A stretch of DNA of 64,000 bases from Candidatus Poribacteria bacterium (GCA_965197475.1 CBDANF010000002.1:1312001-1376000); one strand, 5' to 3'; shown: positions 965 through 57,187, counted from the stretch's first letter. Numbers and translations: made by a program. Notes: a model not told the origin generated them from the sequence alone.

Positions 965-1735
965 ATGAAAACTCTATTTATGATGTTAACAATTATTGCG
1001 TTTGTGGCTTCTTTTGCCCACGCGCTGAATGAACCAGAGGAATCGCTCATCCTTTACATGTCTTTTGATACGGTTGATGGGAAAAACACAATTGACCATT
1101 CAAAGTATGAAAACCATGGCGAAATGGTGGGTGACCCGAAACATGTTGAGGGCAAATTCGGTAAAGCATTAGAATTTAACGGCACATCCGATTGGGTTGA
1201 AATCCCGCATCATGAGACGCTCACTGTTGATAAGGATGTCACGGTCATGGCTTGGATTCATACTGAGAGGCTTACGGGACCCAATAACGCGCAGTGGCAA
1301 GGCATCCTTGCAAAAGGCAACGCTCTCCGTTCCTATAGTTTCTATACTGAGTCAAAAAGTAAGTGTTTGCACTTCGTTGCCGGTGCCGGAAGCGTCTGCA
1401 ACGGGGAAGTCAAGTTAAACGAATGGCAGCATGTCGCTGCGCAGACGAGTGATGGAACACACCGGTATTGGATTAACGGTCAGAAGGTTGGTGAAGTCGG
1501 CGGCAAAGCACCACCGCCAGGCCAAGCTGATACAGCCGATGTCCTTATTGGGAAAACACATGAACCGGCTCGCGAATTCCTTGGATTAATCGACGAGGTG
1601 CGCATCTGGAACCGGGCTCTCTCTGAAGAAGAGATTGTTGAGCAAATGGAAAAAGGGCATTTTGAGCTCCTTCCTGTTGACCCACGCCAGAAATTAACAA
1701 CGACGTGGGGAACCCTAAAGACTCAAAAACGATAG
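965..1735 (+). CDS. Secreted LamG-like jellyroll (concanavalin A-like) protein with C-terminal TWG tail
   Basis: SD AAGGAGG; signal peptide; GKFGKALEFNG, WQHVA and GLIDEVRIWNRALS motifs; ends PVDPRQKLTTTWGTLK. Confidence 0.9.
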   Translation: MKTLFMMLTIIAFVASFAHALNEPEESLILYMSFDTVDGKNTIDHSKYENHGEMVGDPKHVEGKFGKALEFNGTSDWVEIPHHETLTVDKDVTVMAWIHTERLTGPNNAQWQGILAKGNALRSYSFYTESKSKCLHFVAGAGSVCNGEVKLNEWQHVAAQTSDGTHRYWINGQKVGEVGGKAPPPGQADTADVLIGKTHEPAREFLGLIDEVRIWNRALSEEEIVEQMEKGHFELLPVDPRQKLTTTWGTLKTQKR

Positions 1736-1825
1736 TTACAACTAACAGTGATAAGGTTTACTTTTATCACTATAATTTTTATATCACTACTTCGGGATTT
1801 CCGAAGTTAAATTTGGAGGAAAATA

Positions 1826-2596
1826 ATGAGGTTTTTGTTTGTTGTATTAACCCTTACCGTGTTTGTTGCTTCTTTCGCTCACGCAGCAGAAGAATCGGAT
1901 GAATCGCTCATCCTCTATTTCTCTTTTGATGAATTAGATGGGGACATGGCGGTTGACCATTCGCAATATGGGAATAATGGCACTGTAAACGGTGCTCCTG
2001 AGCTGGCAGATGGTAAGTTTGGAAAGGCTCTGAAACTTAACGGAGAAACAGACTGGGTTGAAGTGCCACATGCCGATATTCTTACCGTTGAAACAAGTGT
2101 AACCGTGATGGCATGGATTAATGCTGAAAGGCACATGGGACCGAATAACCAACGTTGGCAAGGTATCCTCGCAAAAGGGAACAGTCCGCGCTCTTATAGT
2201 TTCTACACCGAATCCCCAAGTGAATGTTTGCACTTCGTTACGGGAAGTGGTAGTACCTGCGCGGAAAAAATTGCCCTCAATAAGTGGCAGCATGTTGTTG
2301 GGCAGTCAGATAGTGGCACGCATAGGTATTGGCTTAATGGTGTAAATATCGGTGAATTTGGTGGTAAAGGTGCTTTACCGGGAGCTGCGGATACCTCTAA
2401 CGTCTTCGTCGGAACTACAGCCGAAGGTGCTAATAGAAGGTTCCTTGGCTTGATTGACGAGGTCCGTATCTGGAACCGTGCCCTCACCGAGGAAGAAGTT
2501 ATCATGGAGATGGAAAGCGGATATCAATCCGGAACAGCTGTCGATCCACGGGCGAAATTAGCCATGACTTGGGGTACCATAAAATCCCACAAATAA
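1826..2596 (+). CDS. Secreted LamG-like protein, tandem paralog of 965..1735
   Basis: Same length (256 aa) and same motifs; ends AVDPRAKLAMTWGTIK. Confidence 0.9.
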   Translation: MRFLFVVLTLTVFVASFAHAAEESDESLILYFSFDELDGDMAVDHSQYGNNGTVNGAPELADGKFGKALKLNGETDWVEVPHADILTVETSVTVMAWINAERHMGPNNQRWQGILAKGNSPRSYSFYTESPSECLHFVTGSGSTCAEKIALNKWQHVVGQSDSGTHRYWLNGVNIGEFGGKGALPGAADTSNVFVGTTAEGANRRFLGLIDEVRIWNRALTEEEVIMEMESGYQSGTAVDPRAKLAMTWGTIKSHK

Positions 2597-2626
2597 CGGA
2601 TTGACAGTTATAATTCACGTATTTCT

Positions 2627-2656
2627 TGTAGGTGAACTCGGTTGGGTTCACCTACA
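2627..2656. terminator. GTAG-initiated hairpin (REP or terminator) after the LamG pair
   Basis: TGTAGGTGAAC-N8-GTTCACCTACA perfect stem. Confidence 0.6.
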
Positions 2657-2725
2657 TCCTTTCAGATGTGGCAGAAATTGAAGTTGATAAAATCCTCTGA
2701 TAAATAAAAGGAGAATACATAAAAT

Positions 2726-3127
2726 ATGAACGGAAAATTTATATCATCCGAAGAGGTTGAAAGAGACCACTTAGATTGGGGAACAATAGGTTGGCTCAGC
2801 CGTCCAGAAACCACAGGTGCAAAAGATATCGTCGCAATGGAAGTTAGTCTCTCCCCCGGATACGGGCATGATTTTCATAAACATCCCGATCAGGAAGAGG
2901 TTATCTACGTTATAGAAGGCAGCGTTGAGCAGTGGCTTGAAGATAAGAAGCAAACGCTAAACGCAGGTGACTCTGTCTTCATCGCAGCGGACGTTGTTCA
3001 CGCATCTTTTAATGTTTCAAATCAACCTGCGAAGTTATTTGTTACGCTGAGCCCCAGTAAGGGAGAAGAAGGATATCAACTCATTGATGTTTATGATGAA
3101 GCACCGTGGAATACCCTTCGCTCATAA
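2726..3127 (+). CDS. Cupin domain protein
   Basis: HDFHKHPDQEEVIYVIEG and GDSVFIAADVVH cupin motifs; SD AAGGAG. Confidence 0.9.
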   Translation: MNGKFISSEEVERDHLDWGTIGWLSRPETTGAKDIVAMEVSLSPGYGHDFHKHPDQEEVIYVIEGSVEQWLEDKKQTLNAGDSVFIAADVVHASFNVSNQPAKLFVTLSPSKGEEGYQLIDVYDEAPWNTLRS

Positions 3128-3226
3128 TTGAAACTAATTAGGTTCCTTTCAGACCCTCGCACTTTTTCTTGTTTTCCTGTACCCAAACGGATATAATTTA
3201 TTAAACCTTTTTGGATTTGGACAAAT

Positions 3227-4057
3227 ATGCTTGACACACCCATACCTGAAACACCATTGCAACTCCGTCAGCGGATGCGCGAATTCTATGAAACATCAGA
3301 AACCTATAAAGACCTCTTAGCTGCACATGACGAAGTCTACCTCCGACACTACGTAGAATTGGTAACCCGTTATGCACCATCAGGTTCCAAGATTTTGGAT
3401 CTCGGGTGCGGGAACGGTATTTCCGCTCAACTGCTAAATCAGGCGGACTATGATGTCGTTGGGACTGATATATCGCCGCTTTTTCTTGAGGAAGCGCGGA
3501 ATTGGGAAAATCCGAGACTACGATATCAAGTGTGTGATGTTGTGGAGTTACCGTTTGAGAATGCGTCCTTTGATGTTATCTGTTCAAACGAACTCATAGA
3601 ACATCTGCCTGATGTAGAGACAGCATTAAATGAGATGATTCGTGTTGTACGCAAAGGCGGGAAGGTTGTGCTTTCCGGACCAAATCTTTGTTCACCCTTA
3701 ACACCTTTCCTTGATTGGGTCCGTCTGATGTGTGGTAAACCGGGCAGACCCGTTTGGGGAGAAACAAAGCGGCAAGCATTGCAACAATTTAAGCGAAACT
3801 GTGGACTCTACATAAAAAAGCGTTTCTTGACAAAAACACCTCACTTTATTTATCGCAACCCGGATCTACAAGCAGATGCTATCGGTGGCGATGCTGACAG
3901 TGCCTATTACGCTAACCCAATTGATCTTGCTCAATTTTTTAAGCTGAACGGATTTAGCATAGTCAAAAAATCTGTTGGCTTTGGCATAAAAGGCAGAATT
4001 ATTGCGAGCATGTTTCCGTATTTGAGTCCTTATATCACTATGGTTGTCCAGAAATGA
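3227..4057 (+). CDS. Class I SAM-dependent methyltransferase
   Basis: ILDLGCGNG motif I; LPFENASFDVI; EHL. Confidence 0.9.
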   Translation: MLDTPIPETPLQLRQRMREFYETSETYKDLLAAHDEVYLRHYVELVTRYAPSGSKILDLGCGNGISAQLLNQADYDVVGTDISPLFLEEARNWENPRLRYQVCDVVELPFENASFDVICSNELIEHLPDVETALNEMIRVVRKGGKVVLSGPNLCSPLTPFLDWVRLMCGKPGRPVWGETKRQALQQFKRNCGLYIKKRFLTKTPHFIYRNPDLQADAIGGDADSAYYANPIDLAQFFKLNGFSIVKKSVGFGIKGRIIASMFPYLSPYITMVVQK

Positions 4058-4890
4058 ACATTCGTGCAAACGATTTTGTTTTAGAAATTGGAAGCGGGCA
4101 CAACCCCAAAATACGCTCTGATGTTTTATGCGATAAATTTATGGATGATGACGAACAGCGCGGCGGTATAATTGTTGCGGACCGACCAATGGTGGAAGCG
4201 GATGGGCAGTTTCTGCCTTTTGCAGATGGGGCGTTTGACTATGTGATATGTTCACATGTTTTGGAACATGTTGAAGATCCGGATTTACTTGTATCCGAAT
4301 TGATGCGTGTAGCACCCCGCGGCTATATTGAAACACCCTCCGAAATTGGAGAACGTATCTACGGATGGCATTATCACAACTGGGTAGTTAACCTAATTGA
4401 CGGTCGTTTGGTGTTACAAAAAAACGATAAGCGAACCGAATTTGGACAACTTTTCCACACGTTGGCGGCAAAAGATAAGCATTGGAAGCGATTCCACATT
4501 ATGCATCACCGTATTTTCCTTGTCCAGTATGAATGGGAAGGCAAGATAGACTACGAAATATCGGACGGGAAGGAGTCGCCACTGAATTTGAAATGTCCGC
4601 AGACTATTGAAGAACTTCTAACACCCAAGGTTTCGGAGCAAACCCATAAAGGTTTTTGGTTAATTCTTAAAAGTGTGGTTCCGCGCGGTATTGTATCTCG
4701 TGCAAAATCGCTTTTAGCAAAAAGTAGAAGCCGCCAAACCAAAACATTAAAGGAAATTATCGCCTGTCCGCAGTGTAAAGGCGAAATTACATGGCAGGAA
4801 CAAAACCTACATTGTAATAAATGCAATCGGTTTTATCCGGTTATTGATGGAATTCCGAGATTTACCGTAACTCCAGGGAATTCTCTGTAA
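4054..4890 (+). CDS. Methyltransferase-domain protein with C-terminal Trm112-like zinc ribbon
   Basis: VLEIGSG; LPFADGAFDYVICSHVLEH; C-terminal CPQCKG...CNKCNRFYPVIDGIP; ATGA overlap with upstream gene. Confidence 0.8.
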   Translation: MNIRANDFVLEIGSGHNPKIRSDVLCDKFMDDDEQRGGIIVADRPMVEADGQFLPFADGAFDYVICSHVLEHVEDPDLLVSELMRVAPRGYIETPSEIGERIYGWHYHNWVVNLIDGRLVLQKNDKRTEFGQLFHTLAAKDKHWKRFHIMHHRIFLVQYEWEGKIDYEISDGKESPLNLKCPQTIEELLTPKVSEQTHKGFWLILKSVVPRGIVSRAKSLLAKSRSRQTKTLKEIIACPQCKGEITWQEQNLHCNKCNRFYPVIDGIPRFTVTPGNSL

Positions 4891-4974
4891 TCTCTAAAAC
4901 ACCTAATCTTAACGCTTCATCTTTCTTGAGAAAACTTAGGTTATAACAACCTGCAAAAGAGGAACATATAAATA

Positions 4975-6975
4975 GTGAAAAATATTTACACTTATTTGGC
5001 AATTTTAATAGCGGTGTTTAGTAGTTCGCTTAATGTTGGCTTTGCACAAGAAGATCCGGCGGCTGCGTGGATGCCAGATTCAATTCTGCGGAAAGTCGTG
5101 CGGAGAGCCCTTGAGTTGGATGCGGATGTTGAACTCACGCAAGAAGCCTTAAAAGGGTTGACAGAATTGAATACTCACTATCGTGCGTTTCGGGACCGTG
5201 GAGACGGATTTATTGCCGATATCACCGGTTTAGAATATGCAACAAATTTAGAATTGTTAGTTCTTGTGCCGGAAGCGATTAGCGATATTAACCCGCTTGC
5301 GGGATTAACCAAATTAACATGGTTAGACATAACCTCCAACCAGATCAATGATATCAGTGCCGTGGCAGGATTGGTGAACCTCACAGCATTGCAGCTTAAT
5401 GGAAATCCTGTAGCCGACCTTAGTGTGATAACAAATTTAACGAAACTAACCATACTTAATATTCCGGATTCTATCATAGACGACCTTAATTTGCTCCAGG
5501 AGATCCTACGAAAGAATCCGAATTTAACAAGTGTGAATTTCGTTTTTGATATTCGTAACATCGTCAAGACTCAAATCACCAAGATCGGTTTTTCAGAGGA
5601 GGCACTGCAAACCTACACTGAAGGAGATGAGGTTCAAGTAAATGTGACATTTGACGCGGATGGAACGCGCCATGCTAATGCTAAACCCTACGTGACTGTG
5701 TATATGGGAGAGCAAATCCCAGAGAATGAGCGACAGGCAGAATGGACATCTTCAAAAGATACCAATTCAACGGAGGTAACATTTATATATGAGGTGCTCC
5801 CTGGCGATGATACGTCCAGTGTGACAATAAAACCAAATAGCTTTACAGTTCCTAAGGGGTCATTCATTGTTGACAACAATGGCACCTTTGTTCATGGGGG
5901 CACTGGGGATCAACAGTCAATTGTGACTATTCCTACTTCCGCAGACGTTTATGTTCCTATTGTTGGCACATTGCATCTGATCGTTTTTAGCGAATTTTTA
6001 TTTCAACCTATAAATGAAGTCCATTCAGTGCCACAATGGATTGAGGTCTACAACACGAGTGAAGCTGATATGAATCTACGAGGATGGCAATTAAAGTTAG
6101 AACGTCATGCAGATTATCCCATAATCAATCAACAAGGCGAAAAACCTGTTTTAGAACGCACAGTGCAGATTCAGACAGATTTTATTGTTCCTGCTCGCGA
6201 AACACGTTTAATCGTTACATCCTCAGGACGGAATTCTGGTGGGAAAGCACTTGAGTCTGGACAGGTCTATAATTTATTCGATCACCACTCTGTTGAACTC
6301 AATCAGAACACAGACAATAAGAATAGTGTGATCGTCGCAGACGGCTTTTCGCTCAAACTCCTTGATGCTGACAATATACTTATTGATATCATCGGGAACT
6401 TAAATGAAGATGGGAACACCGTATGGGAAATCCCTAAACGCCTCCTTAATATTCGTGTATCGTTGATACGGCGTTTCGATGAAGGCACACCTCGTCCAGG
6501 AACAGAACGGCGGGGATGGATACCCGCGGATAAGGTGAAAAATCAGCCTAAAGATATTTACTATGGACACAGTTTAGATATTGGCGCGCCTGGGTATCGT
6601 AGCAAGAGTAACCCATTACCTGTCAATTTATCAGTCTTTACAGTGAATGTTGTTTCAGGTAATATCGTTATCGAATGGATAACGGAATCGGAATTAAACA
6701 ACGCTGGTTTTTATGTTCTGCGGAATCCAGCGCGTGAGGGGAATTATGAAGTGCTCAATGCCAAGTTAATTCCGGGGGCAGGCACGACAGGTGAGCGTTC
6801 AGCTTATATGTTTACAGATACAACTGCCGTACCTGGTGTTGTATATTATTATCAACTTGTGGATGTGTCGTATAGTGGTATCCGTAACGTGCTTGGAACG
6901 CAACGGTTACGGGGCACCCTATCGCCAGTTGGGAAACGTATAACGCAATGGGGCAACCTGAAAAACAATAAATGA
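4975..6975 (+). CDS. Exported leucine-rich repeat (internalin-like) plus lamin-tail-like domain protein with TWG-like tail
   Basis: Signal peptide; PDSILRKVVR cap; LxxLxxLxxLxLxxNxIxDI repeats; FSEF...QWIEVYN LTD-like motif; WITESELNNAGFY; ends SPVGKRITQWGNLK. Confidence 0.8.
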   Translation: MKNIYTYLAILIAVFSSSLNVGFAQEDPAAAWMPDSILRKVVRRALELDADVELTQEALKGLTELNTHYRAFRDRGDGFIADITGLEYATNLELLVLVPEAISDINPLAGLTKLTWLDITSNQINDISAVAGLVNLTALQLNGNPVADLSVITNLTKLTILNIPDSIIDDLNLLQEILRKNPNLTSVNFVFDIRNIVKTQITKIGFSEEALQTYTEGDEVQVNVTFDADGTRHANAKPYVTVYMGEQIPENERQAEWTSSKDTNSTEVTFIYEVLPGDDTSSVTIKPNSFTVPKGSFIVDNNGTFVHGGTGDQQSIVTIPTSADVYVPIVGTLHLIVFSEFLFQPINEVHSVPQWIEVYNTSEADMNLRGWQLKLERHADYPIINQQGEKPVLERTVQIQTDFIVPARETRLIVTSSGRNSGGKALESGQVYNLFDHHSVELNQNTDNKNSVIVADGFSLKLLDADNILIDIIGNLNEDGNTVWEIPKRLLNIRVSLIRRFDEGTPRPGTERRGWIPADKVKNQPKDIYYGHSLDIGAPGYRSKSNPLPVNLSVFTVNVVSGNIVIEWITESELNNAGFYVLRNPAREGNYEVLNAKLIPGAGTTGERSAYMFTDTTAVPGVVYYYQLVDVSYSGIRNVLGTQRLRGTLSPVGKRITQWGNLKNNK

Positions 6976-7000
6976 ACCAATCCATAAATTTGAGCAAGGG

Positions 7001-7037
7001 AGGTTTTGAAGATTGTTTACGATAATCTTCAAAACCT
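7001..7037 (+). terminator. Stem-loop, likely terminator
   Basis: AGGTTTTGAAGATT...AATCTTCAAAACCT. Confidence 0.6.
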
Positions 7038-7080
7038 TTACTAACTCACCACTTCGTTACCGAGACGTTGAATATACAAA

Positions 7081-8043
7081 ATGAAAAATAATACAAACAA
7101 CATTGAAAATAGAAATGTCGTGATAATTGGTGGTGGAACTGCTGGCTTTGCAGCAGGTGTCTACACCTCCCGGGCAATGCTGGAACCTGTTCTAATTACG
7201 GGTGATGCACTTGGCGGGCAACTCTCCTTAACACTTGACCTTGAGAACTACCCCGGATTTTTTGGTAACGAAGCTTCCGTTTTCATTCAAGGCATGCAGG
7301 AGCAAGCAGAGCGGTTCGGTACTGAGGTTAAATTTGACACAGTAACAGCCGTTGATTTCGCGCAACACCCGTTTGTCGTGAACACTTATGAAAAAGAGTA
7401 CCACGTAAAATCTGTGATTATCTGCACTGGTGCTTCCCCACGCACACTTGACATCCCTGGGGAAGAGCGATATGGTGGACGTGGTGTCTCCTACTGTGCG
7501 ACGTGTGATGGGTTTTTCTTCCAAGACCAACGACTCGTCGTAGTTGGTGGTGGTGACGCTGCATTGGAGGAAGGAATCTTCCTAACAAAATACGCATCTG
7601 AAGTCTATGTCGTTCATCGGCGCGACCAATTGCGTGCAAGTCAAATTATGCAAGAACGCGCATTCAAAAACGATAAAATCAAGTTTATTTGGGACACTGT
7701 CGTTGAGGAAATTTGCGGAAATGACGAAAAAGTAACGGGTGCCAAACTCAAAAACGTCAAAACAAATGAGACAGAACTTTTCCCGATTGATGGTGTGTTT
7801 ATCTTTATAGGTCATATACCGAACACAGAACTTTTTGCAAACGTTATAGATATGAATGAACAAGGGTACATTATCGTAGACGATCTTCAACGTACCAACA
7901 TAGATGGCGTTTTTGCAGCAGGTGATGTGCATGATCACGTGTTCCGTCAAGCGATTACGGCGGCAGGTGCAGGCGCAGCGGCGGCGATCGCATCCGAAAA
8001 GTTCATCGCTGAATTCGAAAACCGCGCATATCCAGGGAATTGA
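7081..8043 (+). CDS. trxB: Thioredoxin-disulfide reductase
   Basis: GGGTAG FAD motif; SYCATCDG active site; GGGDAALEEG NADPH motif; HRRD; GVFAAGD. Confidence 0.95.
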   Translation: MKNNTNNIENRNVVIIGGGTAGFAAGVYTSRAMLEPVLITGDALGGQLSLTLDLENYPGFFGNEASVFIQGMQEQAERFGTEVKFDTVTAVDFAQHPFVVNTYEKEYHVKSVIICTGASPRTLDIPGEERYGGRGVSYCATCDGFFFQDQRLVVVGGGDAALEEGIFLTKYASEVYVVHRRDQLRASQIMQERAFKNDKIKFIWDTVVEEICGNDEKVTGAKLKNVKTNETELFPIDGVFIFIGHIPNTELFANVIDMNEQGYIIVDDLQRTNIDGVFAAGDVHDHVFRQAITAAGAGAAAAIASEKFIAEFENRAYPGN

Positions 8044-8108
8044 TTCTCCGAATAGATGCACTGTAAAGAAGGTTGATATTCATCGGCGGAATAGAGTACA
8101 ATATTGAT

Positions 8109-9062: not shown

Positions 9063-9103
9063 CTCTAACCGGTTAAGTAGGATCCTTTAGGTTGCGTGGT
9101 GCC

Positions 9104-9264: not shown

Positions 9265-9295
9265 TCGGTAAGGGTTGCCTACTGTAAGGTGAAAT

Positions 9296-17540: not shown

Positions 17541-17795
17541 ATGAGCTGGTATCATTTCCTCCGAGATGATTGGGATAGATATTATCCAAAATACCTGCAG
17601 TCTGAAACGTGGAAGAAGAAACGTGAGGAGGTCTTTCAACGAGACGGATGTCTTTGTATCTGCGGGCAAACCGCGACAGAGGTGCATCACAAACGTTATG
17701 ACAATGTGGGAAAAGAACCTTTGTCCGATTTAGTTTCACTCTGTAAAGAATGCCACTTTGATTTGCAGGCGACACTTAAGGATATGCGTAGGTGA
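17541..17795 (+). CDS. Small HNH endonuclease-like protein
   Basis: YLQSETWKKKREEVFQRDG-C-x-C...EVHH...LVSLCKECH. Confidence 0.8.
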   Translation: MSWYHFLRDDWDRYYPKYLQSETWKKKREEVFQRDGCLCICGQTATEVHHKRYDNVGKEPLSDLVSLCKECHFDLQATLKDMRR

Positions 17796-17808
17796 TAAAG
17801 GAGATAGT

Positions 17809-20115
17809 ATGCGCAATTGGACTATTACATCTATAATATTGTTTTCTTTCTTTTCTTTGTGTCCGATTATCTCTGCCCAAGAATACGCACATACAACGTT
17901 TATTGGACATGAACGTATTGTTTCAAGTGTAGCGTTTAGTCCTGATGGCAAGATATTAGCAAGTGGCAGTTGGGATTATACTATACGTTTATGGAATGTA
18001 AACACTGGGGAACTTCTCAAAACACTTATTGGGCATGAGAATTGTGTTTCAAGTGTAGCGTTTAGTCCTGATGGCAAGATATTAGCAAGTGGCAGTTGGG
18101 ATCACAGTATCCGAATCTGGGATGTAGACACTGGTAACCATATCCACACACCAGTTCGGAAGGATACTGGAGTAGCCCATTGGGATCGTGTCAGAAGTGT
18201 AGCGTTTAGTCCTGATGGACAAATCCTTGTTGTAGGGAGCCATGATAAAAGTATTAGTCTATGGGATACAAACACTTGGCAAAATCTTAATGGGCGCACT
18301 GAACCACAGGATAAGATTACGAGCGTAAAGTTCAGTCCTGATGGGCAGTATGTCGCGTGTGGAAGTTTGGACGATAATGTCTATTTGTGGGATACAAAAG
18401 GTCAGAATAATACGAATATATGGACACTACATAAAAAACTCAAACACCGGAATGGTATTGCAGGCATCGCGTTTAATCCTGATGGCAAAATTCTTGCTAC
18501 CGGAGCCGGAAAAACTATACGCCTCTGGAATCCTAACACAGGACAACTCCTCAATACACTAGCAGGACATACACACTCTGTTAATCATTTAGCATTCAGC
18601 CGCGACGGACAAACTCTGGCAAGTGGAAGCAGTGGTTACCAAAAAAATATCATTCTCTGGGATGTGAAAACAGGACAACTCCTCAGTACATTAGCTGATA
18701 CCAAAAATCACACCTTCAGTGTGGCATTTAGTCCAGATGGACAAACCCTGGCAAGTGGTGGTTCGATCTTTAACAGTGGTAGAGGTGTTGTGAAATTGTG
18801 GGATTTATACCATGCTTATGTCGAGATTACACCTAATAATATATCAGATACACCAATTATTGGGGATCAGTTCTCAATTAACATAAACATTGCTGATGGA
18901 AAATTAGTCGATGGGTACCAATTCACTGTAGAGTATGATAGCTCAACACTCCGATATCTATCAAGTTCCAATGGTAACTATTTATCAGAAGGAGCATATC
19001 TTGTGCCACCGATTGTATCAGATGATAAAGTGACAATCAGTGCCATTTCTCTTGGAGGAGAAAGTAACGGCAATGGTACGCTTGCTACAGTAACATTTGA
19101 AGCTATAGATTTTAAAGATTCCGTTATCAAAATATCTGATGTAATCCTTACGAATAAAGAAGGAGATAAATTACTTCACCATTTAAATGATACTGTTAAA
19201 CTTGTTAAAGCAGCGGGCGGAGCTTCACCTGCGGTTATCAGCATTACTCCTTCCCTGATACCTGCGAGAGGCACCGGTGAAAACATTGTATTTGATGTAA
19301 ATATTGCTGGTGGGCAAAACATCACTGATTATTACTTTCATTGGGAATATTTTCCAACAACAAGAATGAAAATGTTATCAGTTGATAAGGGTGACTATTT
19401 TACAAATGGTATTGGTAATGGGGATGGTACATTGGCGACAGTAACAATTGAAGTCCTTCGTGTTCATTCTCATTATAGTATTTTGCTGGATGTATATCTT
19501 ATCGGAAAAGACGGTCTTCGTTATATACCAATTCATAAGGCAAGTGATGGGTTTCCAAGGATGGAAGGTCGTATAAATGTTCCAGTAGTTATTCCTGATT
19601 TACCTAATGTTGTAAACATTATACCTTCGTCTCTTCCTCATCCAGGTATTGGCAAGAAAGTAGTCTTTGATGTCAATATTACAGGAGGTCATAATATTGT
19701 TGATTATAAAATGTCTTGGAAATATATCAAAAATAATCTAAAATTAATAAACAATGAATGGAATAATTTTACGAATGCTATTGGGAGTGAAGGAGGAAAA
19801 CTTACAACCACAACATTTGAAACACTTACAGATAAAGACGCAAGTATTGCTGTTGATATATTACTTGTCAATTCTGATAATTTCGTCTACAGAGCTGTAA
19901 ACGAACAGGGTGATCTACCATTTATTGAAATAAAAAAACCAGTTTTCCCACATGGAGATATAAATAAAGATGGTGTTGTTAATATTCAAGACCTTGTATT
20001 AGTGGCATCAAAGTTCGGTGAGGCAGTAGAAGATGATCCCGCAGATGTGAATGGGGATGGGGTTATCAATGTTCAAGACCTTGTCATCGTTGCCAATGCG
20101 CTGGGGAACAATTAA
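17809..20115 (+). CDS. Exported WD40-repeat protein with cohesin-like domains and C-terminal dockerin
   Basis: SD AAGGAG; signal peptide; GH...VAFSPDG..LASGSWD..IRLW repeats; GNGTLATVTF; GDINKDGVVNIQDL and DVNGDGVINVQDL. Confidence 0.9.
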   Translation: MRNWTITSIILFSFFSLCPIISAQEYAHTTFIGHERIVSSVAFSPDGKILASGSWDYTIRLWNVNTGELLKTLIGHENCVSSVAFSPDGKILASGSWDHSIRIWDVDTGNHIHTPVRKDTGVAHWDRVRSVAFSPDGQILVVGSHDKSISLWDTNTWQNLNGRTEPQDKITSVKFSPDGQYVACGSLDDNVYLWDTKGQNNTNIWTLHKKLKHRNGIAGIAFNPDGKILATGAGKTIRLWNPNTGQLLNTLAGHTHSVNHLAFSRDGQTLASGSSGYQKNIILWDVKTGQLLSTLADTKNHTFSVAFSPDGQTLASGGSIFNSGRGVVKLWDLYHAYVEITPNNISDTPIIGDQFSININIADGKLVDGYQFTVEYDSSTLRYLSSSNGNYLSEGAYLVPPIVSDDKVTISAISLGGESNGNGTLATVTFEAIDFKDSVIKISDVILTNKEGDKLLHHLNDTVKLVKAAGGASPAVISITPSLIPARGTGENIVFDVNIAGGQNITDYYFHWEYFPTTRMKMLSVDKGDYFTNGIGNGDGTLATVTIEVLRVHSHYSILLDVYLIGKDGLRYIPIHKASDGFPRMEGRINVPVVIPDLPNVVNIIPSSLPHPGIGKKVVFDVNITGGHNIVDYKMSWKYIKNNLKLINNEWNNFTNAIGSEGGKLTTTTFETLTDKDASIAVDILLVNSDNFVYRAVNEQGDLPFIEIKKPVFPHGDINKDGVVNIQDLVLVASKFGEAVEDDPADVNGDGVINVQDLVIVANALGNN

Positions 20116-20396
20116 AATCAGGGTGTAGACATTATAGCGTTTTAATTGTGGTTCTTATCGGTCTGTGGTAAGTCTTAAGTTCGTGGATTGCACTCTACTC
20201 AATCTAAATTTATACTTACACTCGGATTTTAATATTGAACCCATGTTTAGATTAAATTTTTGATATGGTGTTATGATATACCTCTCAATTAAATCATTAA
20301 TGTCTATTTTACTGCGGTGTTTCCGATTATGTCATAAGGACTGTGAAGGCTGGAATGAATATGAATTTTTCTGCTCTCAACCATTGAAGTAAAATC

Positions 20397-50062: not shown

Positions 50063-50089
50063 GTTGGGTAGAGCTTGCGAAACCCAACA
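50059..50089 (+). repeat. GTAG-type REP overlapping the MTase stop codon
   Basis: GTAGGTTGGGTAGAGCTTGCGAAACCCAACA, same family as 133-281. Confidence 0.75.
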
Positions 50090-50168
50090 TTGTTAGGAAC
50101 GACCTCCAATCAACGCCAAAAGCGCATTCGACGTTGATTTGGCCACTTTGCAAGCAGCCTCTAAGACA

Positions 50169-50663
50169 TCATTCTGATTCAAGGTGTTTCTTGACATTTT
50201 CCTTACCGAATGCCCACACTTCTTCTCCAAATTCCATCAGAGGCGAAGTAAAAAGCGAGTTGTTAATTTCGTCTTTGAAGAAATCGTTGGTATGTGGATT
50301 GAGGAAAGTAAGAAGCAGCGCGATTATAAGTGCACTTGTGGCAATGCCTATTCCTAATCCGAGCAAGCTATTCAACCACCCTAAAATGCCTTTCTCAAAG
50401 ATTTGATGGATCCGTTCAAAAATTGTGTCTGTTACGATAGATGTAATAATTATCAGTGCAATAATGCTGATCCATTTTGCAATTTCTTCATTTACAATAA
50501 TTTTTTGGATGGGAAAAGCGAGGTGCTGCCACAATTGACTTGCGACGATGAGTCCGGCGCCGAGGGCAAAAGCACCCCACACACTTCGAGTGAAACCGGC
50601 TTTGTAACAACTAAATCCGGCTATTCCAACGATGATGAGAATGACAATATCTAATTTCGTCAT
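50169..50663 (-). CDS. CvpA (colicin V production) family membrane protein
   Basis: LDIVILII...GF.R; four TM segments; WLNSLLG..G. Confidence 0.8.
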   Translation of the reverse strand: MTKLDIVILIIVGIAGFSCYKAGFTRSVWGAFALGAGLIVASQLWQHLAFPIQKIIVNEEIAKWISIIALIIITSIVTDTIFERIHQIFEKGILGWLNSLLGLGIGIATSALIIALLLTFLNPHTNDFFKDEINNSLFTSPLMEFGEEVWAFGKENVKKHLESE

Positions 50664-50781
50664 AGCAAGGGAGGTGCATTAAATAAGCACGCGATTTATA
50701 TTTTGCAGGTGTTTTGCAGGTTTGAAATAAAGGGCGTAGAAAGTTAAGAAACGAGATCCTTGGAGTATCTTTTGATCTGGG

Positions 50782-51789
50782 TTAATTTGGTATTACGCTC
50801 TTTTTATAAATTTGCTGCATCGCTGTTTCAATCGGGGTGCCGTTTCCTAAAAGACTAAGGAGTTGTCGGATAGAAAGGAATCCTCCTTCATCAATCAAGG
50901 CACTAACGATCGCTGCTGATTGAAGATATGCAATTTTTCGCTTTGAAGTTGGAAGTTCGGTGAAAGGTTGGTTGAGTTCCAACAACGTTGGCAAAGTTCC
51001 ATGTTTGTCTGCTTGTTGCAGGGCGAGTTTTTCGAAGGACAGCAACGGACGGGCAATCGTTTGCGCAAGTCCCTCGTTGAGCCAAATCGGACAATTCCCG
51101 TGTGTAAGGAGATCAACTAACAGATGTGTCCACTCATGCCGAATAAGGACATATAAAACACCCAGTTCCGGTTCTCCATCAGCACAATAGTTCAGTTGGA
51201 TATGTCCATCGTAGCACCCACTTGCCCATTTCGGTATGTGTGCTTGTGGTGGAGCATCGTGCGTATTTATGATTGAGATAGATATTTGGTGGGGTGGATA
51301 ACTGTCAAGTTGGGCACCAACTTCGTTGTGCGTTCTTTCAGTGAGTTGGCAGATATACCAAAGTGTTTTTGGAGCAACGGCAGGTTCAACGGTCAGTTTA
51401 AAAAACAGACGTTCAATTACATTCTGAGTGCGCGGCAAATTTTCTGATTGAAGTTTTAGCGTGAAGTCCGAGGGAGGCTCTTCCACTAAATTGCTCTCAT
51501 GAATTAGGGTTTGATAGCACTTTTTTTCTTCACTGATACGTGCTTTACGTCTGAGTACTGCAGGTGAATCGGGACATAATTGAAGCGCGATATCCAAGTA
51601 TATCAATGCCTGTTCCCATTTTCCGACCATTTCGTATGCCTTAGCAAGGTCAGCATAAATATGGTAACGACTCTGGTCGTATTTTAAACCCGCTAAGTAG
51701 TGCTGGATGGATTCAACGTAACGAGTTTGTTGAAAACAGACTGCCGCCTGCTGAAAATAGGGTAAAGCGAGCGAAGACGTATCGCGCAC
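50782..51789 (-). CDS. TPR plus peptidase MA-like (gluzincin) protein
   Basis: N-terminal TPRs; IRHEWTH...PIWLNEGLAQ; AYLQS. Confidence 0.8.
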   Translation of the reverse strand: MRDTSSLALPYFQQAAVCFQQTRYVESIQHYLAGLKYDQSRYHIYADLAKAYEMVGKWEQALIYLDIALQLCPDSPAVLRRKARISEEKKCYQTLIHESNLVEEPPSDFTLKLQSENLPRTQNVIERLFFKLTVEPAVAPKTLWYICQLTERTHNEVGAQLDSYPPHQISISIINTHDAPPQAHIPKWASGCYDGHIQLNYCADGEPELGVLYVLIRHEWTHLLVDLLTHGNCPIWLNEGLAQTIARPLLSFEKLALQQADKHGTLPTLLELNQPFTELPTSKRKIAYLQSAAIVSALIDEGGFLSIRQLLSLLGNGTPIETAMQQIYKKSVIPN

Positions 51790-51912
51790 GGGTTCTCATT
51801 TTCTCGGTTAGGTGAGAACAAAAGGGGAGTATGATAGATGCACGAGTCTCTACGTCTAAATAGCATGGACCCGTATTGCAAATTTGAAGTTGCTCCCCTG
51901 TTCCCCCGTAGT

Positions 51913-52554
51913 TTAAGAATTTTTAACGTCAATTATTTGGAAAGTGATATCCCCGCACTTAAACTCTGAACCTTCTTCAATCGGTGCAGAATCCTTTACG
52001 CGAATCCCTCCAACATACGTAGGTGTTGAACTTCCCAAGTCTGTGACAGAGACTTCATCATCTTGCATCTCAAAAGAGAGATTCAGATGTGCAAGGGTTC
52101 GGGTATCATTATTCTTTTCCGCTTCAGGATTTTGCCAGCGTTTCAATTCTTCACCAGTCGGAGGCTTTAGCGATCCTGGAAAAACATCAGTATCTACGTT
52201 CCCCATTGCCTGCGGGCTGTAGGCTGCCTGAGGGTTAAGCGTAGCCATCACATCTTGTGCAGCCTCACTTGCTTCATCTCTGACAGTTTTCATCAGTTTT
52301 TCTCTTACGCGTTCCTTCGACCCTGGACGCGGCATAACGCTTTCTGTTTCCTGAAAACGATAATGTGCGAAATCAACCAGTTCTTTTAACTTGTGAAAGT
52401 GGGTTGATTCTTGAATGTTTTTAAGAAGGCATCTTTGTTTACGGCTGAGTTTTTCATTTTTCAACCAACACGTATAAGCTTCTAAAACCTCTGCTTCTTT
52501 GATATCGGTATCATTATACCGAGCGGACTTCGGAGTCTTTCTCAAAAAACTCAT
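51913..52554 (-). CDS. Putative anti-sigma-like protein with partial FHA domain
   Basis: SD GGAGG; directly downstream of the ECF sigma; C-terminal VTDLGSSTPTYVGG...GSEFKCGD resembles an FHA C-half. Confidence 0.6.
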   Translation of the reverse strand: MSFLRKTPKSARYNDTDIKEAEVLEAYTCWLKNEKLSRKQRCLLKNIQESTHFHKLKELVDFAHYRFQETESVMPRPGSKERVREKLMKTVRDEASEAAQDVMATLNPQAAYSPQAMGNVDTDVFPGSLKPPTGEELKRWQNPEAEKNNDTRTLAHLNLSFEMQDDEVSVTDLGSSTPTYVGGIRVKDSAPIEEGSEFKCGDITFQIIDVKNS

Positions 52555-52591
52555 TAGTTAATCCTCCATGTTTACAAATCAATTAAATCCG

Positions 52592-53209
52592 TTATTGTAT
52601 CCATTGAATACCTTTGTTAACCAGAATTTGCCGCAATTCTTGCGTACATCGGAATATCCAGATTTTGACTGTTCCATCTTTCCGGTTAAGAATACGGGAA
52701 ATTTCTGCAACACTACATCCTTCTAAATGTCTTAGGATCCAGGCGATACGGTGATTCGGTTTAGTGACCTGCTCAAGAGCCGTTTCTAAAATTTCTTGTG
52801 CCTCTTGGGCTATTATGTGTTTGTCAGGTCCCGGTCGTCCATCTTCGTATTCATTCAGAGGGAGGTCATCTTGCTCTTCAAGTGTGAGGAGCGATTCACG
52901 GATCCGATCTCTCCTGCGTATCGCATCAATAATTGTATTGCGAGCTACTATATTTAACCATGCTTGGAAACTACCTTTTTCAGGGTCCCATTTATCTTTG
53001 TCAAGTTTTTGCCAGACTTTAGTAAAAACATCCAGACTAACCTCTTCAGTATCTTGATGGTCTCCGAGCATTCGATAAGCCTTACTATAGACCCAATTAT
53101 AGTGCTTCTCAAATAGCTGGCTAAACGCAGCTTCATCGCCTTGTTTAGCTTGGGTAGCTAGATAGGTATCTTCAGTAGCCGATAGGTCATTTTTCGCTTG
53201 GCGCGCCAT
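52592..53209 (-). CDS. ECF RNA polymerase sigma factor
   Basis: GDEAAFSQLFEKH; DTEEV..DVF; FQAWLNIVARN..ID; LRHLEG.S..EIS.IL....GTVK..I.R; SD AGGAGG. Confidence 0.92.
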   Translation of the reverse strand: MARQAKNDLSATEDTYLATQAKQGDEAAFSQLFEKHYNWVYSKAYRMLGDHQDTEEVSLDVFTKVWQKLDKDKWDPEKGSFQAWLNIVARNTIIDAIRRRDRIRESLLTLEEQDDLPLNEYEDGRPGPDKHIIAQEAQEILETALEQVTKPNHRIAWILRHLEGCSVAEISRILNRKDGTVKIWIFRCTQELRQILVNKGIQWIQ

Positions 53210-53270
53210 AGGCAAAACCTCCTTTGTCCTCTTTTAGCCAAAGGATTTATGAAACCAGTTTCGCTATAAT

Positions 53271-53297
53271 AACGAAACTATCCCGTATTACGTTTCA
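53271..53297 (-). promoter_or_regulatory. Putative ECF-type autoregulatory promoter
   Basis: Minus strand TGAAAC-N17-CGTT about 60 nt upstream of the sigma ATG. Confidence 0.5.
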
Positions 53298-53426
53298 GAT
53301 AATTCTGAAATCTTCCTATAGGAAAAGTAAATTAGCACATTAGAGGATATCAATGCAAAATGATGTAATATTTTTAAAGTATATCATACAACGAAAATTA
53401 CATCAATAATGTTTACCGGATTTTGT

Positions 53427-53455
53427 TTGACACATATAGGCTGAATAGGTAAAAT
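53427..53455 (+). promoter_or_regulatory. sigma70 promoter
   Basis: TTGACA-N17-TAAAAT. Confidence 0.55.
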
Positions 53456-53486
53456 GTGATCGATTGTTGTGGTAAATTTTTGTATA

Positions 53487-53576
53487 ATACCAAATTAACT
53501 TGATCTTACTCGGTAGGCGCGCTTGTAAGCGTGCCTAATACCCAGAAAAATAAGATAAATCCGGTTAATTTGATAT
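53487..53576. mobile_element. 90-bp MITE with ATACCAAATTAAC / GTTAATTTGATAT IR enclosing a GTAGGCGCGCTT...AAGCGTGCCT palindrome
   Basis: 12/13 IR match; relatives at 12918 and a solo end at 50781-50793. Confidence 0.7.
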
Positions 53577-53590
53577 AAGGAGTAAATCAG

Positions 53591-54358
53591 ATGATTAGAC
53601 CAGGAACTTTATCTACCATCTTGTGCGTTATCCTCATCTTTTCAGCGAGAGGAGATTTTCTTCCAGAGGAAAACATTGACGCGTTTGGACTAAAATATGG
53701 AGAATCAATTGCAGGCATACCACCGAGTAAACCCAAAATTGATGGTAAACTTGACGATTGGCGGTACGCTGTCTGGGTCGCCTTCGACTCAGAAAAGGAA
53801 CTATATCGTGGTAAAGGAGCATGGCAAGGGAAAGATGACCTTACGATGACATGGTCAACGATGTATGATGCAAAGAATTTTTATTTTGCAGCAGCAGTAC
53901 GCGATGATGCCTTTACTCCAGCGGCGAATCCTGCTGATGCGTGGAAAGGCGATACGATTTTCTTGTATATTGATTGGGAAAAAGTGGGAGCCGGATCGCC
54001 TTCAGGTAAGCCCAACTTTGCACTTATCAATAATAAAACCCATATTATTGACTACAGTGCTGAGAAAAATGAAGATCTACCTAACTCCGATATTGCTATT
54101 GTTCCAACACCTGAATTGGGAAAGGGCGGCATGATTTACGAAGTCGCCATGCCGTTTGAGTGGCTCACAAAAATGAAAATAGAGCGAGGAGCCGTAGTCG
54201 GGTTTACGCCCGGATATGAGGAAGGTACTGACGATCTTGAAAAGAAAGGAGGCATGGTGTTCATGTGTTGGGACGGAACGTTTGAGGGTCCGCTTGATGT
54301 CAATTCAACGAGCAAGTTAGCAATCACATGGGGACAATTGAAAAGATTTGTGCAATAA
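53591..54358 (+). CDS. Exported CBM9-like/DOMON sugar-binding protein with TWG tail
   Basis: Signal peptide; PKIDGKLDDW; YFAAAVRDD; YEVAMPF; ends DVNSTSKLAITWGQLK. Confidence 0.75.
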   Translation: MIRPGTLSTILCVILIFSARGDFLPEENIDAFGLKYGESIAGIPPSKPKIDGKLDDWRYAVWVAFDSEKELYRGKGAWQGKDDLTMTWSTMYDAKNFYFAAAVRDDAFTPAANPADAWKGDTIFLYIDWEKVGAGSPSGKPNFALINNKTHIIDYSAEKNEDLPNSDIAIVPTPELGKGGMIYEVAMPFEWLTKMKIERGAVVGFTPGYEEGTDDLEKKGGMVFMCWDGTFEGPLDVNSTSKLAITWGQLKRFVQ

Positions 54359-54374
54359 AACAATGTATTCTTTT

Positions 54375-54497
54375 CAGGACTTACGCAATGTGTTTAAAAG
54401 TCCCACTGATAAGGGGGATTTAGGGGGTTAAAAGCACCAAATTCTGCCTATTTAACCCCCCTAACCTCCCTTATCAAGGGGGAATGCGTCCGTCCTG
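54375..54497. mobile_element. Second 123-bp MITE copy
   Basis: Near-identical to 45766-45888; flanked by a CTTTT direct repeat. Confidence 0.9.
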
Positions 54498-54677
54498 CTT
54501 TTAACCATCCACGTAGATTTCGCAATGCATAAACAGGAATTCGGACACACCATCACTGTAAAAAATTCGTTTGACATTTTTTATAAATTAGTAGTAAACT
54601 ATTTATGTGGTAGGTACCCTCAGTGGATTCTTGTAAACAGTATTTGGCACACTCTGTATGTTGCTACCTTTTACATA

Positions 54678-55574
54678 ATGTCTGAAAAAACGCGGAAGCA
54701 AGAAGAACTTTTTATACAACTGCTTGAAAAAGCCGATAGTTTGTTAACCCGGTTGCAAATGCCTGTGGTTCAACCACCAAGTAAGGTGCTTGACGATTAC
54801 ATAGCCTTTCGGTGGCGACAACAAAATGGAACCGGACAGATTGTGCCAGTTAAACATCCACATCTTGTTGATACTACAGATTTAATTGGAATAGACGTAC
54901 AGTGTGAAGTGTTGGATAGAAACACTCGGCAGTTTTTGCGTAGCGCGCCAGCAAACCACGCGCTTTTGTGGGGAGACCGTGGAACCGGAAAATCTTCTCT
55001 GGTTAAAGCGATGTTGAAAAGGTATGCTGACGATGGTCTTCGGTTAATCGGTATCGGTAAAGAGGGACTTGTCCATTTACAAGAGATTGCGGAATTGTTG
55101 TGGGAACGCCCCGAACGTTATCTTCTTTTTTGTGATGACCTCGCTTTTAGCGAAAACGAACCTGAATATCGTGAATTGAAGGCAGTGCTGGAAGGTGGGA
55201 TTTCCGAATGCCCAGACAATATTCTTATCTACGCAACCTCTAATCGTCGGCACCTGATGCCTCGACAGGTAGGTGAGAACCGTTACCCACAGAACGAAGA
55301 AGATGAACTCTGTCCACGTGAGGCAACAGAAGAAAAAGTATCACTAAGCGACCGTTTTGGGTTACGACTCGCTTTCTACCGTATTTCACAGAACACCTAT
55401 TTGGAAATCGTTTCCCATTACGCTCAAAAATTGGGACTTACTATACCGGCCGAGGAATTACATCGTGCAGCGTTGGAGTGGGAAGCATCATCCAGCGGAC
55501 GTTCCGGCCGAGTTGCCTATCAGTTCATCATACACCTTGCCGGACAATTAGCACTGACTGATACAACATTGTAG
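54678..55574 (+). CDS. DUF815 family AAA+ ATP-binding protein
   Basis: AFRW; NTRQF; LLWGDRGTGKSSLVKA; FCDDL; YATSNRRHL; EEKVSLSDRFG. Confidence 0.9.
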   Translation: MSEKTRKQEELFIQLLEKADSLLTRLQMPVVQPPSKVLDDYIAFRWRQQNGTGQIVPVKHPHLVDTTDLIGIDVQCEVLDRNTRQFLRSAPANHALLWGDRGTGKSSLVKAMLKRYADDGLRLIGIGKEGLVHLQEIAELLWERPERYLLFCDDLAFSENEPEYRELKAVLEGGISECPDNILIYATSNRRHLMPRQVGENRYPQNEEDELCPREATEEKVSLSDRFGLRLAFYRISQNTYLEIVSHYAQKLGLTIPAEELHRAALEWEASSSGRSGRVAYQFIIHLAGQLALTDTTL

Positions 55575-55624
55575 AATCCTCACACGCAGGTTCACTATAT
55601 TCTATAAAACAGGAACGTAAGTTC

Positions 55625-56401
55625 ATGGGCGACCTACAGACACAGCAATACCTCTTCGACGTGCAAGGCTACTTAGTCATTGAAGAAGTCTTGGATTCTG
55701 AAGAGGTCGCTGAACTCAATCAACGAATTGACGAGCAAGAACTCCCTACACCGGGAAAGGTTCAAAGATTCGGGAGTGCACCGGACGGTGCTGGCTTTTT
55801 ACAGTGGGGAAAATTGTTTTGTAATTTATTGGATCATCCGAAGATAATGGAGGTTCTTCGCTTCCGATTAGGCGACTGTTTTCGCCTTGACCGAATTTAC
55901 GGCATGTATATGCATGAGGGGATGCCGAGGGGCGGGCTCCATGCTGACTACGGTGCCTCATCACCGACCTCAAAAGCAAAGCATGGAGAATATTACGCAT
56001 TTCGAGATAACGAAATCCCTAACGGATTTGTTGTGGTAACATGGAATTTGGCAGATACCGGTCCAGAACTTGGCGGTTTTTGCTGTATTCCCGGTAGCCA
56101 TAAGAGCAATTATAAACTACCACATGAGATAGCCTCCGCACCTGAAAATGCACCTTGTGTTACTATTCCAAACGCACCTGCAGGCTCAGCGATTCTCTTT
56201 TCCGAAGCACTAACACACGGCACCGCTGCCTGGAACGGAAAACATGAACGGAGGTCGCTTTTGTATAAATATTGTGTGTCACACATGGCGTGGACATCTC
56301 GACGTGTAGCACAACCGGAGGATATAGAATTAACAGAACGTCAAAAGATTCTCTTCCGTGAACCTGCAGATCCGTATCGGCATTTTCCATCGTTGTTTTG
56401 A
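55625..56401 (+). CDS. Phytanoyl-CoA dioxygenase (PhyH) family protein
   Basis: YLFDVQGYLV; GGFCCIPGSHKSN; FSEALTHG; RRSLLYKY. Confidence 0.9.
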   Translation: MGDLQTQQYLFDVQGYLVIEEVLDSEEVAELNQRIDEQELPTPGKVQRFGSAPDGAGFLQWGKLFCNLLDHPKIMEVLRFRLGDCFRLDRIYGMYMHEGMPRGGLHADYGASSPTSKAKHGEYYAFRDNEIPNGFVVVTWNLADTGPELGGFCCIPGSHKSNYKLPHEIASAPENAPCVTIPNAPAGSAILFSEALTHGTAAWNGKHERRSLLYKYCVSHMAWTSRRVAQPEDIELTERQKILFREPADPYRHFPSLF

Positions 56402-56531
56402 AGTTGAGACTTGAGCAAGCAACGGTTTTATCAATCTAACATCTGTGTTTATCGTGAATATGAAAATAATATTAAAATTACACCTACGGTGAAATCAAAT
56501 TTTGATTTATCCATTACCGTAGACATAAAAA

Positions 56532-57187
56532 ATGAAAATGAAGGTTTTTATGAACAAGCGAATCATGGTCTGTGTAACACTTATACTGTTGTTAGGCAGC
56601 ATAATTCTGATACAAACAACAAATGCTGTCCCTAAAAAGGGAACTTTGCGCGTTAGTGGCGATAACACTTGGGTCGCTTACGTAAACGGAGAAAAGGTAG
56701 CAGAAGGCGGTGACTGGACTCAACCCACTGCCAGCGAGTTCACACTGGACGATGGCTTTGCGGTCATAGCGGTCTATGTACATGATGCGGAAGCAGGAGC
56801 CGCGGGCAAAGGTGGATTTCTCGCCGATATCATCCTTGACGATAAGCCAAACTACATCGGGACAGGCGAAGATGGCTGGCGATGTGATTCTGGCATCCTT
56901 CTTGCTGATCGGAAAGATGGTTGGGAAAAAGTTAATTTTGACGATAGCGATTGGGAAACAGAACTCCAGATTTATGAAAAATTCGGGGATCCGGTAGCTA
57001 TTTGGAATGATGGTGTCAATGCGATGAAAGCGATTCTCAAAGATCCTGATTGTACAGCAAATTGGGTTTGGTGCGGTCCATACGATGTAGAAGATGATAT
57101 CTACTTCCGTTATACTATCGGTCAACTCCCGTTGAACCTAACGGAAAAATCACAACTACGTGGGGTGCTTTAAAGGCTGCACGGTAA
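56532..57187 (+). CDS. Exported lectin/galactose-binding-like protein; TWG tail out of frame near 57122
   Basis: Signal peptide; DN...YVNG; WEKVNFDDSDW; the frame-0 ORF ends at 57173, and another frame reads TPVEPNGKITTTWGALKAAR* to 57187. Confidence 0.75.

Follow-up and report, generated by a model that had tools for sequence, protein, structure and literature searches.

In a 64,000-nucleotide stretch of DNA from a Candidatus Poribacteria bacterium (GCA_965197475.1, CBDANF010000002.1:1312001-1376000; hereafter the window), five genes for exported proteins, spread over positions 965 to 57,187, end in the code for one shared short peptide with the core T-W-G, which we refer to as the TWG tail. 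Our results show that this tail is a portable, near-strictly C-terminal peptide without a transmembrane (TM) helix on Sec-type exported proteins of many folds: about 130 exported binding proteins of this genome, with many unrelated folds, share the ~20-residue end. We propose, at a probability of roughly 0.4, that it serves as a portable C-terminal sorting, maturation or anchoring tag, read most likely by the attachment branch of a machinery resembling the one for type IX secretion (T9SS).

A six-frame scan of the genome (5.70 Mb, 3 contigs) gave 133 matches to W-G-x-[LIVM]-K, 86 of which lie 1-7 residues before a stop codon. With a broader core pattern, 131 of 169 matches fell within 10 residues of the stop and 38 were internal. 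The alignment of 75 anchored tails outlined the consensus L-A-V-E-P-x-G-K-L-A/T-T-T-W-G-x-L/I-K, followed by 1-10 mostly basic or polar residues; the W, the G and the final K were invariant in all 75 rows, while K(-5) was present in 65 and V(-10) in 66. A hidden Markov model (HMM) built from these tails also picks up T-W-A, T-W-S and T-W-E variants. Behind the final Lys we counted 1-10 residues, with a mode of 3, and none of the 131 tails ended on the Lys itself. Lys and Arg make up 30% of these trailing residues, compared with 15% over the three final positions in other genes; at least one of the two occurs behind the Lys in 95 of the 131 tails, and the final residue is R, K or Q in 78.

Next, we studied the proteins that carry the tail. 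The 96 carriers of at least 150 aa fall into 27 BLAST similarity groups (with 32, 24, 7 and 4 members, six pairs and 17 singletons). Pfam families were found on 12 of 20 representatives, the other eight having none, and comprised Laminin_G_3, LRR, PD40, Ldl_recept_b, CBM_4_9, NPCBM, CBM9_1, F5_F8_type_C, 3keto-disac_hyd (DUF1080-type) and Kelch. In a crude call of 4578 genes, a hydrophobicity heuristic gave a signal-peptide-like N-terminus for 72 of the 99 tail genes vs 1318 of the 4479 others (Fisher p 2e-18); among tail genes of at least 200 aa the count was 72 of 86, and most exceptions start inside a domain. A later TM-like stretch was present in only 1 of the 99. Congruently with the original prediction, which had been made from the window alone, the motif is thus C-terminal and not mostly internal, goes with signal peptides and is not equally present on cytoplasmic proteins, and contains no TM helix.

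The tail is conserved as protein and not as DNA. Pairwise nucleotide identity among 73 tails was 0.56 at the first codon position, 0.68 at the second and 0.37 at the third, all four Thr and all four Gly codons are in use, and in the 60 nt downstream of the stop identity was 0.26, which is the random level. In 42 homologues of the first LamG protein of the window, the tail keeps its P, K, W, G and K without exception, and the trailing residues vary. An AlphaFold2 (AF2) model of this protein gave a predicted local distance difference test (pLDDT) score mostly between 77 and 95 for the body (10-residue block means from residue 51) and below 50 for residues 234-256; because of this low score on a confidently modelled LamG body, the tail is predicted to be a flexible appendage. 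The 27 similarity groups, the ten or more Pfam families and the unpacked AF2 tail together rule out a structural strand of one domain family, in agreement with the earlier proposal that the tail is independent of any single fold. No Pfam or NCBIfam model matched the tail in the window proteins or the 20 genome representatives. Protein Atlas look-alikes of residues 230-256 scored 0.78-0.82 to unnamed clusters, which is the chance level, and when the PDB was searched with a profile of the tail, the best result (E 0.87) was an internal V-x-P-S-G-K-L-P-x-T-W-G in GH3 beta-glucosidases, which we took as chance.

A pointer to a secretion system came from the type A T9SS C-terminal domains (CTDs) of the same genome. 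Such a domain, with the pattern N-Y-P-N-P-F-N-P-E-T-W ... G-x-Y-F-Y ... T-R-K-M-L-I-x-K, ends 42 open reading frames (ORFs; for example C3:3407529-3407918 and C2:517434-517823); CTD motifs B, D and E are all present in the 42, and AF2 models a genuine CTD of this genome with a pLDDT above 90. In six of the 42 the tail or a tail-like motif (T-W-G-K-I-K, K-W-G-Q-I-K or T-[LI]-G-Q-I-K) stands directly ahead of the CTD; counted from the N of N[YF]PNPF, its Lys is at -7. Across all 42 proteins, K or R occupies position -7 in 22, position -6 in 18, and at least one of these two positions in 33. We found the junction W-G-x-[ILVM]-K ... P-N-P-F-N-P 43 times in 35 of 61 sampled Poribacteria genomes, with the same spacing in 42 of the 43 cases, and a reversed-pattern control gave 0. 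These results reveal a new relationship: in Poribacteria the motif stands at a fixed distance ahead of type IX CTDs, and its Lys lies where most CTDs have K or R. Moreover, the bodies of 18 of the 96 tail proteins are homologous to those of CTD proteins. Most of the 42 CTD ORFs have a helical F-Q-R-G-I-x-x-L-E-x-L-L...P-K-E-T-A-L-L-P segment ahead of the CTD; in the six, the TWG-type motif takes its place and keeps the Lys in the same register.

Six residues separate the tail Lys from N[YF]PNPF in this genome. In Prevotella intermedia, a passage of PMC11969387 describes short CTDs that are cut 6-11 residues ahead of motif B. By analogy, this cut distance is compatible with a processing site at or near the tail Lys.

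We then looked at the T9SS-like machinery encoded in the genomes. An SprA-like ORF of 2140 aa (C3:1988941-1995363, minus strand) scored 157 bits against an NCBIfam cut-off of 200. Three PorU-like C25 proteins of 1744-2186 aa, which have CTD-like ends of their own, lie at C2:1199232-1205792 (plus), C3:62315-68770 (plus) and C3:3901209-3906443 (minus) and scored 371, 374 and 412 bits against a cut-off of 420. The first of them is followed immediately downstream by a PorV-like barrel gene (C2:1206358-1207362, plus; PorV/PorQ family, 105 bits, cut-off 90), and a further PorV/PorQ-family barrel lies at C3:3543578-3544549 (minus; 204 bits, same cut-off). The genome holds at least two proteins of this family that exceed the cut-off. 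SprA-like genes and orthologues of the PorU-adjacent PorV-like gene were each found in 37 of 37 sampled Poribacteria. A passage of Kamke et al. 2014 (PMC3909097) states that Poribacteria have T9SS sorting domains and that the Por structural genes were not found; contrary to that passage, genes recognizable by similarity as SprA-, PorU- and PorV-like are present across Poribacteria.

Additional PorV/PorP-like barrel genes at C3:3203434-3204453, C3:3991275-3991709 and C3:1413490-1413930 (all plus strand) adjoin very large CTD-protein genes, with frames of 870, 4851 and 5213 aa, an arrangement that we liken to adhesin-shuttle pairs such as SprB-SprF.

The tail extends well beyond this genome. NCBI lists the closest database homologues under the name Candidatus Poribacteria. 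A 25-row tail model matched all 151 sampled Poribacteria genomes (9 families, 22 genera), mostly with at least 55 matches per genome. A search of a species-genome collection with the exact pattern T-W-G-x-[IV]-K-x-L-Y-R-stop, which we call the Eisenbacteria-type tail, returned at least 133 stretches; among the 80 matches listed, 39 had a taxon name (Eisenbacteria 21, Latescibacter- 6, Krumholzibacteri- 5, Gemmatimonadota 3, Fibrobacteraceae 3 and Zixiibacteriota 1), and all of these named records belong to Fibrobacteres-Chlorobi-Bacteroidetes (FCB)-type lineages. The consensus upstream of this version of the core is C-P-[VT]-P-[VT]-E-x-[ST]. One to three Cys often stand 8-10 positions before T-W-G in the Eisenbacteria-type tails, and the poribacterial tails are without them; a Cys was seen at positions -20 to -18 from the end in 12-19 of the 80 tails listed. 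In 121 genomes of the phylum of the Eisenbacteria-type group, the DNA pattern for T-W-G-x-[ILVM]-K occurred 0-60 times per genome (reversed control 0-3), with 24 genomes holding at least 20 matches and 22 holding at most 3. Judging from these patterns, the T-W-G core is common to several FCB-type phyla and strongly variable in abundance. The original prediction had called the presumed machinery lineage-specific; since the core recurs in several FCB-type candidate phyla, this part did not hold. Our full-text literature searches gave no description of the tail, nor of a T9SS in Poribacteria, Eisenbacteria or Latescibacteria, and the tail appears to be undescribed in print.

Taken together, we favor the following scheme. 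The proteins, mostly small ligand-binding carriers, would be exported by the Sec pathway, after which some component of the envelope may recognize the flexible tail; the most likely candidate is the attachment branch of a T9SS-like system formed by a PorU-like C25 sortase and a PorV-like barrel. The invariant Lys would be the processing or attachment point, the few residues behind it, or the whole CTD where there is one, would serve as the leaving group, and the cell surface would retain the mature protein. This link to the T9SS branch is the best single hypothesis because of the CTD register, the invariant Lys that is never terminal, the bodies shared with CTD proteins, and the fact that all examples seen come from lineages with SprA-, PorU- and PorV-type genes. 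The tail had first been read as a possible docking peptide for an outer-membrane machine with no characterized cognate machinery. Its standing as a portable C-terminal tag of exported proteins was borne out, the gene neighborhoods yielded no partner, and as for the machinery, a candidate context does exist in the fixed CTD register and the SprA-, PorU- and PorV-like genes.

Several observations weigh against this scheme. The SprA-like and PorU-like proteins score below their NCBIfam cut-offs. PorU-family genes were found in each of the 121 genomes of the other phylum and in all 5 additional metagenome-assembled genomes that bear the tail, and they are equally present in tail-poor or tail-free genomes; because tail counts run from 0 to 60 across these 121 PorU-positive genomes, co-occurrence with PorU is non-discriminating and we discarded it as a marker of tail-bearing genomes. 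GldL, GldM and GldN models matched nothing in the genome under study, and no positive-control genome was matched either; similarly, the GldM model matched 0 of the 121 other genomes with its positive controls silent too. The junction with the CTD was not found in any of the 17 genomes of the Poribacteria families f2 and f3, nor in any of the 5 tail-rich genomes of other phyla, whose CTD motif may differ from P-N-P-F. When a tail plus CTD segment was modeled, AF2 left the tail (pLDDT below 50) unpacked against the CTD (above 90), which also gives no support to the idea that the tail adds a strand to the CTD in cis. Among 312 neighbors lying at most 2 genes from the 99 tail genes there was no specific recurrent partner, only large paralogous families, the best of which had 12 of its 75 members near tail genes vs ~5 expected. 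Within the window, the neighbors of the tail genes (a cupin, methyltransferases, a thioredoxin-reductase-like protein, an extracytoplasmic function (ECF) sigma factor, DUF815, PhyH and an aminotransferase) are ordinary cytoplasmic enzymes. Finally, the T9SSs studied so far need the CTD for export, so the outer-membrane route of the tail-only proteins, which have no CTD, is left unexplained.

A bolder form of the T9SS scheme, which we regard as clearly unlikely, takes the TWG tail as a minimal, CTD-independent signal that the sortase branch would recognize in a T9SS variant for which a GldL/M/N-type motor was not detected; the PorU-like C25 protein would cut after the Lys and transfer the protein to a surface glycolipid. 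If true, this would amount to a new covalent surface-anchoring pathway for at least 100 proteins per genome in Poribacteria, Eisenbacteria, Krumholzibacteriota, Latescibacterota and neighboring lineages.

Close behind the T9SS-branch hypothesis ranks an unrelated docking receptor, a reading that we hold to be possible though somewhat unlikely. Here the tail would be an independent docking tag, that is, a short ligand peptide (e.g., an added beta-strand) for an unrecognized envelope receptor or scaffold, in the manner of dockerin and cohesin and with no tie to T9SS. Several observations are congruent with it: the AF2 models make the tail flexible and exposed, the conserved positions lie on both faces of the strand-like K-L-x-T-T-W-G-x-L-K, the carriers are small binding modules, and other docking modules exist in the genome, such as the dockerin-like end of the protein encoded at 17758-20115 of the window. 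The abundance of 0-60 tails in a phylum with universal PorU points the same way, as does the finding that most tails, 131 of them, are CTD-free, compared with the 6 of 42 CTD proteins that have the motif. This reading, however, leaves unexplained both the fixed CTD register and the constant presence of at least one residue behind the Lys, and the neighborhoods gave no candidate for the receptor.

A self-sufficient envelope-binding peptide, whose Trp and flanking Lys or Arg would stick to anionic lipopolysaccharide, phospholipid or peptidoglycan without dedicated machinery, seems quite improbable to us. The enrichment of K and R behind the Lys (30% vs 15%; present in 95 of 131 tails) and the lack of machinery in the gene neighborhoods agree with such a peptide, but the invariant W-G and K together with the conserved V, P/A, G-K-L and T-T, over ~17 positions and in several phyla, go beyond a generic need for charge and an aromatic residue. 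Even less probable is a proteolysis or turnover tag that a periplasmic C-terminal-processing (PDZ) protease would recognize, setting the level or the activation of the protein. While its C-terminal position, its flexibility and the residue or residues always found behind the Lys would suit such a tag, the distance from the motif to the C-terminus, 1-10 residues or a whole 90-aa CTD, is a poor fit to register-specific recognition of a free carboxylate, and the polar or basic ends differ from the non-polar C-terminal ends that Tsp/Prc proteases prefer. The idea of a non-functional tail (a relic of CTD loss, a mere linker or a translated repeated DNA element at gene ends) could draw on the resemblance of tail-only proteins to tail plus CTD proteins cut a few residues behind the Lys and on the many truncated carriers, but it is largely refuted and hardly credible because the motif persists on some 100 genes or more in each of 151 of 151 genomes and also in other phyla, because orthologues hold it while the trailing residues change, and because synonymous codons vary freely next to unrelated downstream DNA.

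Returning to the window, four of the five shared tails stand in frame at the ends of their ORFs, and Pfam agrees with the domain labels originally given to these four proteins. The first is an exported LamG protein of 256 aa (965-1735, plus strand; PF13385 at residues 72-224), whose tail occupies residues 237-256, nt 1673-1732 (PVDPRQKLTTTWGTLKTQKR). An exported LamG paralogue of the same length follows at 1826-2596 (plus; tail nt 2534-2593, AVDPRAKLAMTWGTIKSHK). A third paralogue, with the tail ...PVDPRQKLATTWGNLKTQQR, lies just upstream of the window at C2:1311038-1311844 (plus), and the local cluster is therefore a three-gene tandem array. The exported LRR plus lamin-tail-domain (LTD) protein of 666 aa (4975-6975, plus) belongs to a group of 24 paralogues in the genome; its tail (nt 6913-6972, plus) is divergent, ends in ...LSPVGKRITQWGNLKNNK and scores 15.9 bits against the tail HMM. 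The exported CBM9-like protein of 255 aa (53591-54358, plus; PF06452 at residues 50-221) ends in the tail DVNSTSKLAITWGQLKRFVQ at nt 54296-54355. Next to this gene and divergent to it, at 51913-53215 (minus), lie the gene for an ECF sigma factor and, downstream of that, an ORF that no Pfam model matches, possibly an anti-sigma factor.

The fifth protein, also exported (56532-57187, plus), had been described as lectin-like; it has no Pfam match and only a weak NCBIfam match to a rhamnosidase region (E 1.8e-7), so the label was dropped. As had been noted, its tail, PVEPNGKITTTWGALKAAR (nt 57098-57184, stop 57185-57187), is out of frame with the ORF at 56532-57173. In all five same-genus orthologues examined the tail is in frame after ...YFRYTIGQLPVEP... 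and the sequence reads ...YFRYTIGQLPVEPxDK..W[GA]xIK... in one frame, with the motif kept while the residues behind the Lys change. Because these five hold the tail in frame, comparison of the sequences places a 1-base indel in the window copy at the junction of GQLP and VEP, near 57125. It is either an assembly error or a real frameshift; none of the public contigs from the same strain bridges 57100-57130. A metatranscriptome library from sponge contains an identical 370-base contig (56595-56964), a match that does not prove transcription. Genome-wide, 35 of the 131 tails lie on ORFs shorter than 150 aa, and in 13 of these 35 a homologous body is found upstream in another frame, which means either many indel errors in the 3-contig assembly or many decaying tail genes.

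A six-frame scan of the window with W-G-x-[LIVM]-K gave six matches, all on the plus strand and all 3-4 residues ahead of a stop. One of them, W-G-T-I-K at 20102-20128, lies in an alternative frame at the end of the WD40 and dockerin gene at 17758-20115; we rejected it as a sixth tail and consider it a chance match because the upstream V-E-P-x-G-K-L-x-T-T is missing and the tail model gives it 9.3 bits (E 12). The product of that gene (plus strand, 785 aa), a WD40 beta-propeller protein, has a dockerin-like repeat at its end (NCBIfam dockerin_GC, E 0.001), which suggests that this organism may have a second, separate docking system.

Whole sorting systems, among them sortase, exosortase and T9SS, have repeatedly been discovered by way of portable C-terminal tags. 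The present one marks ~2-3% of the genes of a dominant sponge-symbiont phylum and recurs in several uncultured phyla, and its carriers are mostly lectin-like and eukaryote-like binding modules, which are thought to mediate host contact. Finding the reader of the tag would reveal how these bacteria dress their surface, and the tail counts of 0-60 over 121 related genomes provide a contrast set for phylogenetic profiling.

Finally, we compared the tail with known systems. The beta-signal of outer-membrane proteins is the C-terminal strand of a beta-barrel and ends in an aromatic residue; it was ruled out, as the tail carriers are proteins of soluble domains (LamG, LRR, Kelch) and 78 of 131 tails end in R, K or Q. 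Like the tripartite signals (LPXTG/sortase, PEP-CTERM/exosortase and GlyGly-CTERM/rhombosortase), the tail is a short C-terminal motif on many unrelated exported proteins and is followed by basic residues. Unlike them, it has no hydrophobic TM segment, the motif being followed by 1-10 polar or basic residues and a TM-like stretch occurring in 1 of 99 genes, and NCBIfam CTERM models gave, at E up to 0.1, no match on the tail proteins. Encapsulin cargo-loading peptides and dockerin modules are likewise small, flexible terminal elements that dock varied cargo to one receptor; the likeness is one of functional idea and not of sequence, and encapsulin cargo is cytoplasmic whereas the tail proteins bear signal peptides.

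The Eisenbacteria-type tail, ...C-P-[VT]-P-[VT]-E-x-[ST]-T-W-G-x-[IV]-K-[AS]-L-Y-R-stop, shares with the poribacterial one the T-W-G-x-[ILV]-K at the extreme C-terminus, the diversity of the ORFs and the acidic V/T-E upstream. It differs in its four-residue x-L-Y-R ending (imposed by the search pattern), where Poribacteria have 1-10 variable residues, in the shorter spacing from V-E to T-W-G and in the frequent upstream Cys. The T9SS type A CTD (Por_Secre_tail, TIGR04183 / PF18962), which leads to cleavage by PorU and attachment, is a 60-100-residue Ig-like sandwich, whereas the tail has ~17-20 disordered residues; the 75-row consensus has none of the CTD motifs B (YPNP), D (GxY) and E (basic C-terminal strand), and TIGR04183 / PF18962 gave no CTD match on the window tail proteins or the 20 genome representatives. 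Nevertheless, both are portable, C-terminal and free of a TM helix, both are found on Sec-exported proteins of many folds, and they share genomes as well as homologous protein bodies. The CTD boundary also has K or R where the tail has its Lys, and the six residues between this Lys and the CTD are similar to the distance at which, according to the same passage of PMC11969387, the short CTDs of P. intermedia are cut ahead of motif B.

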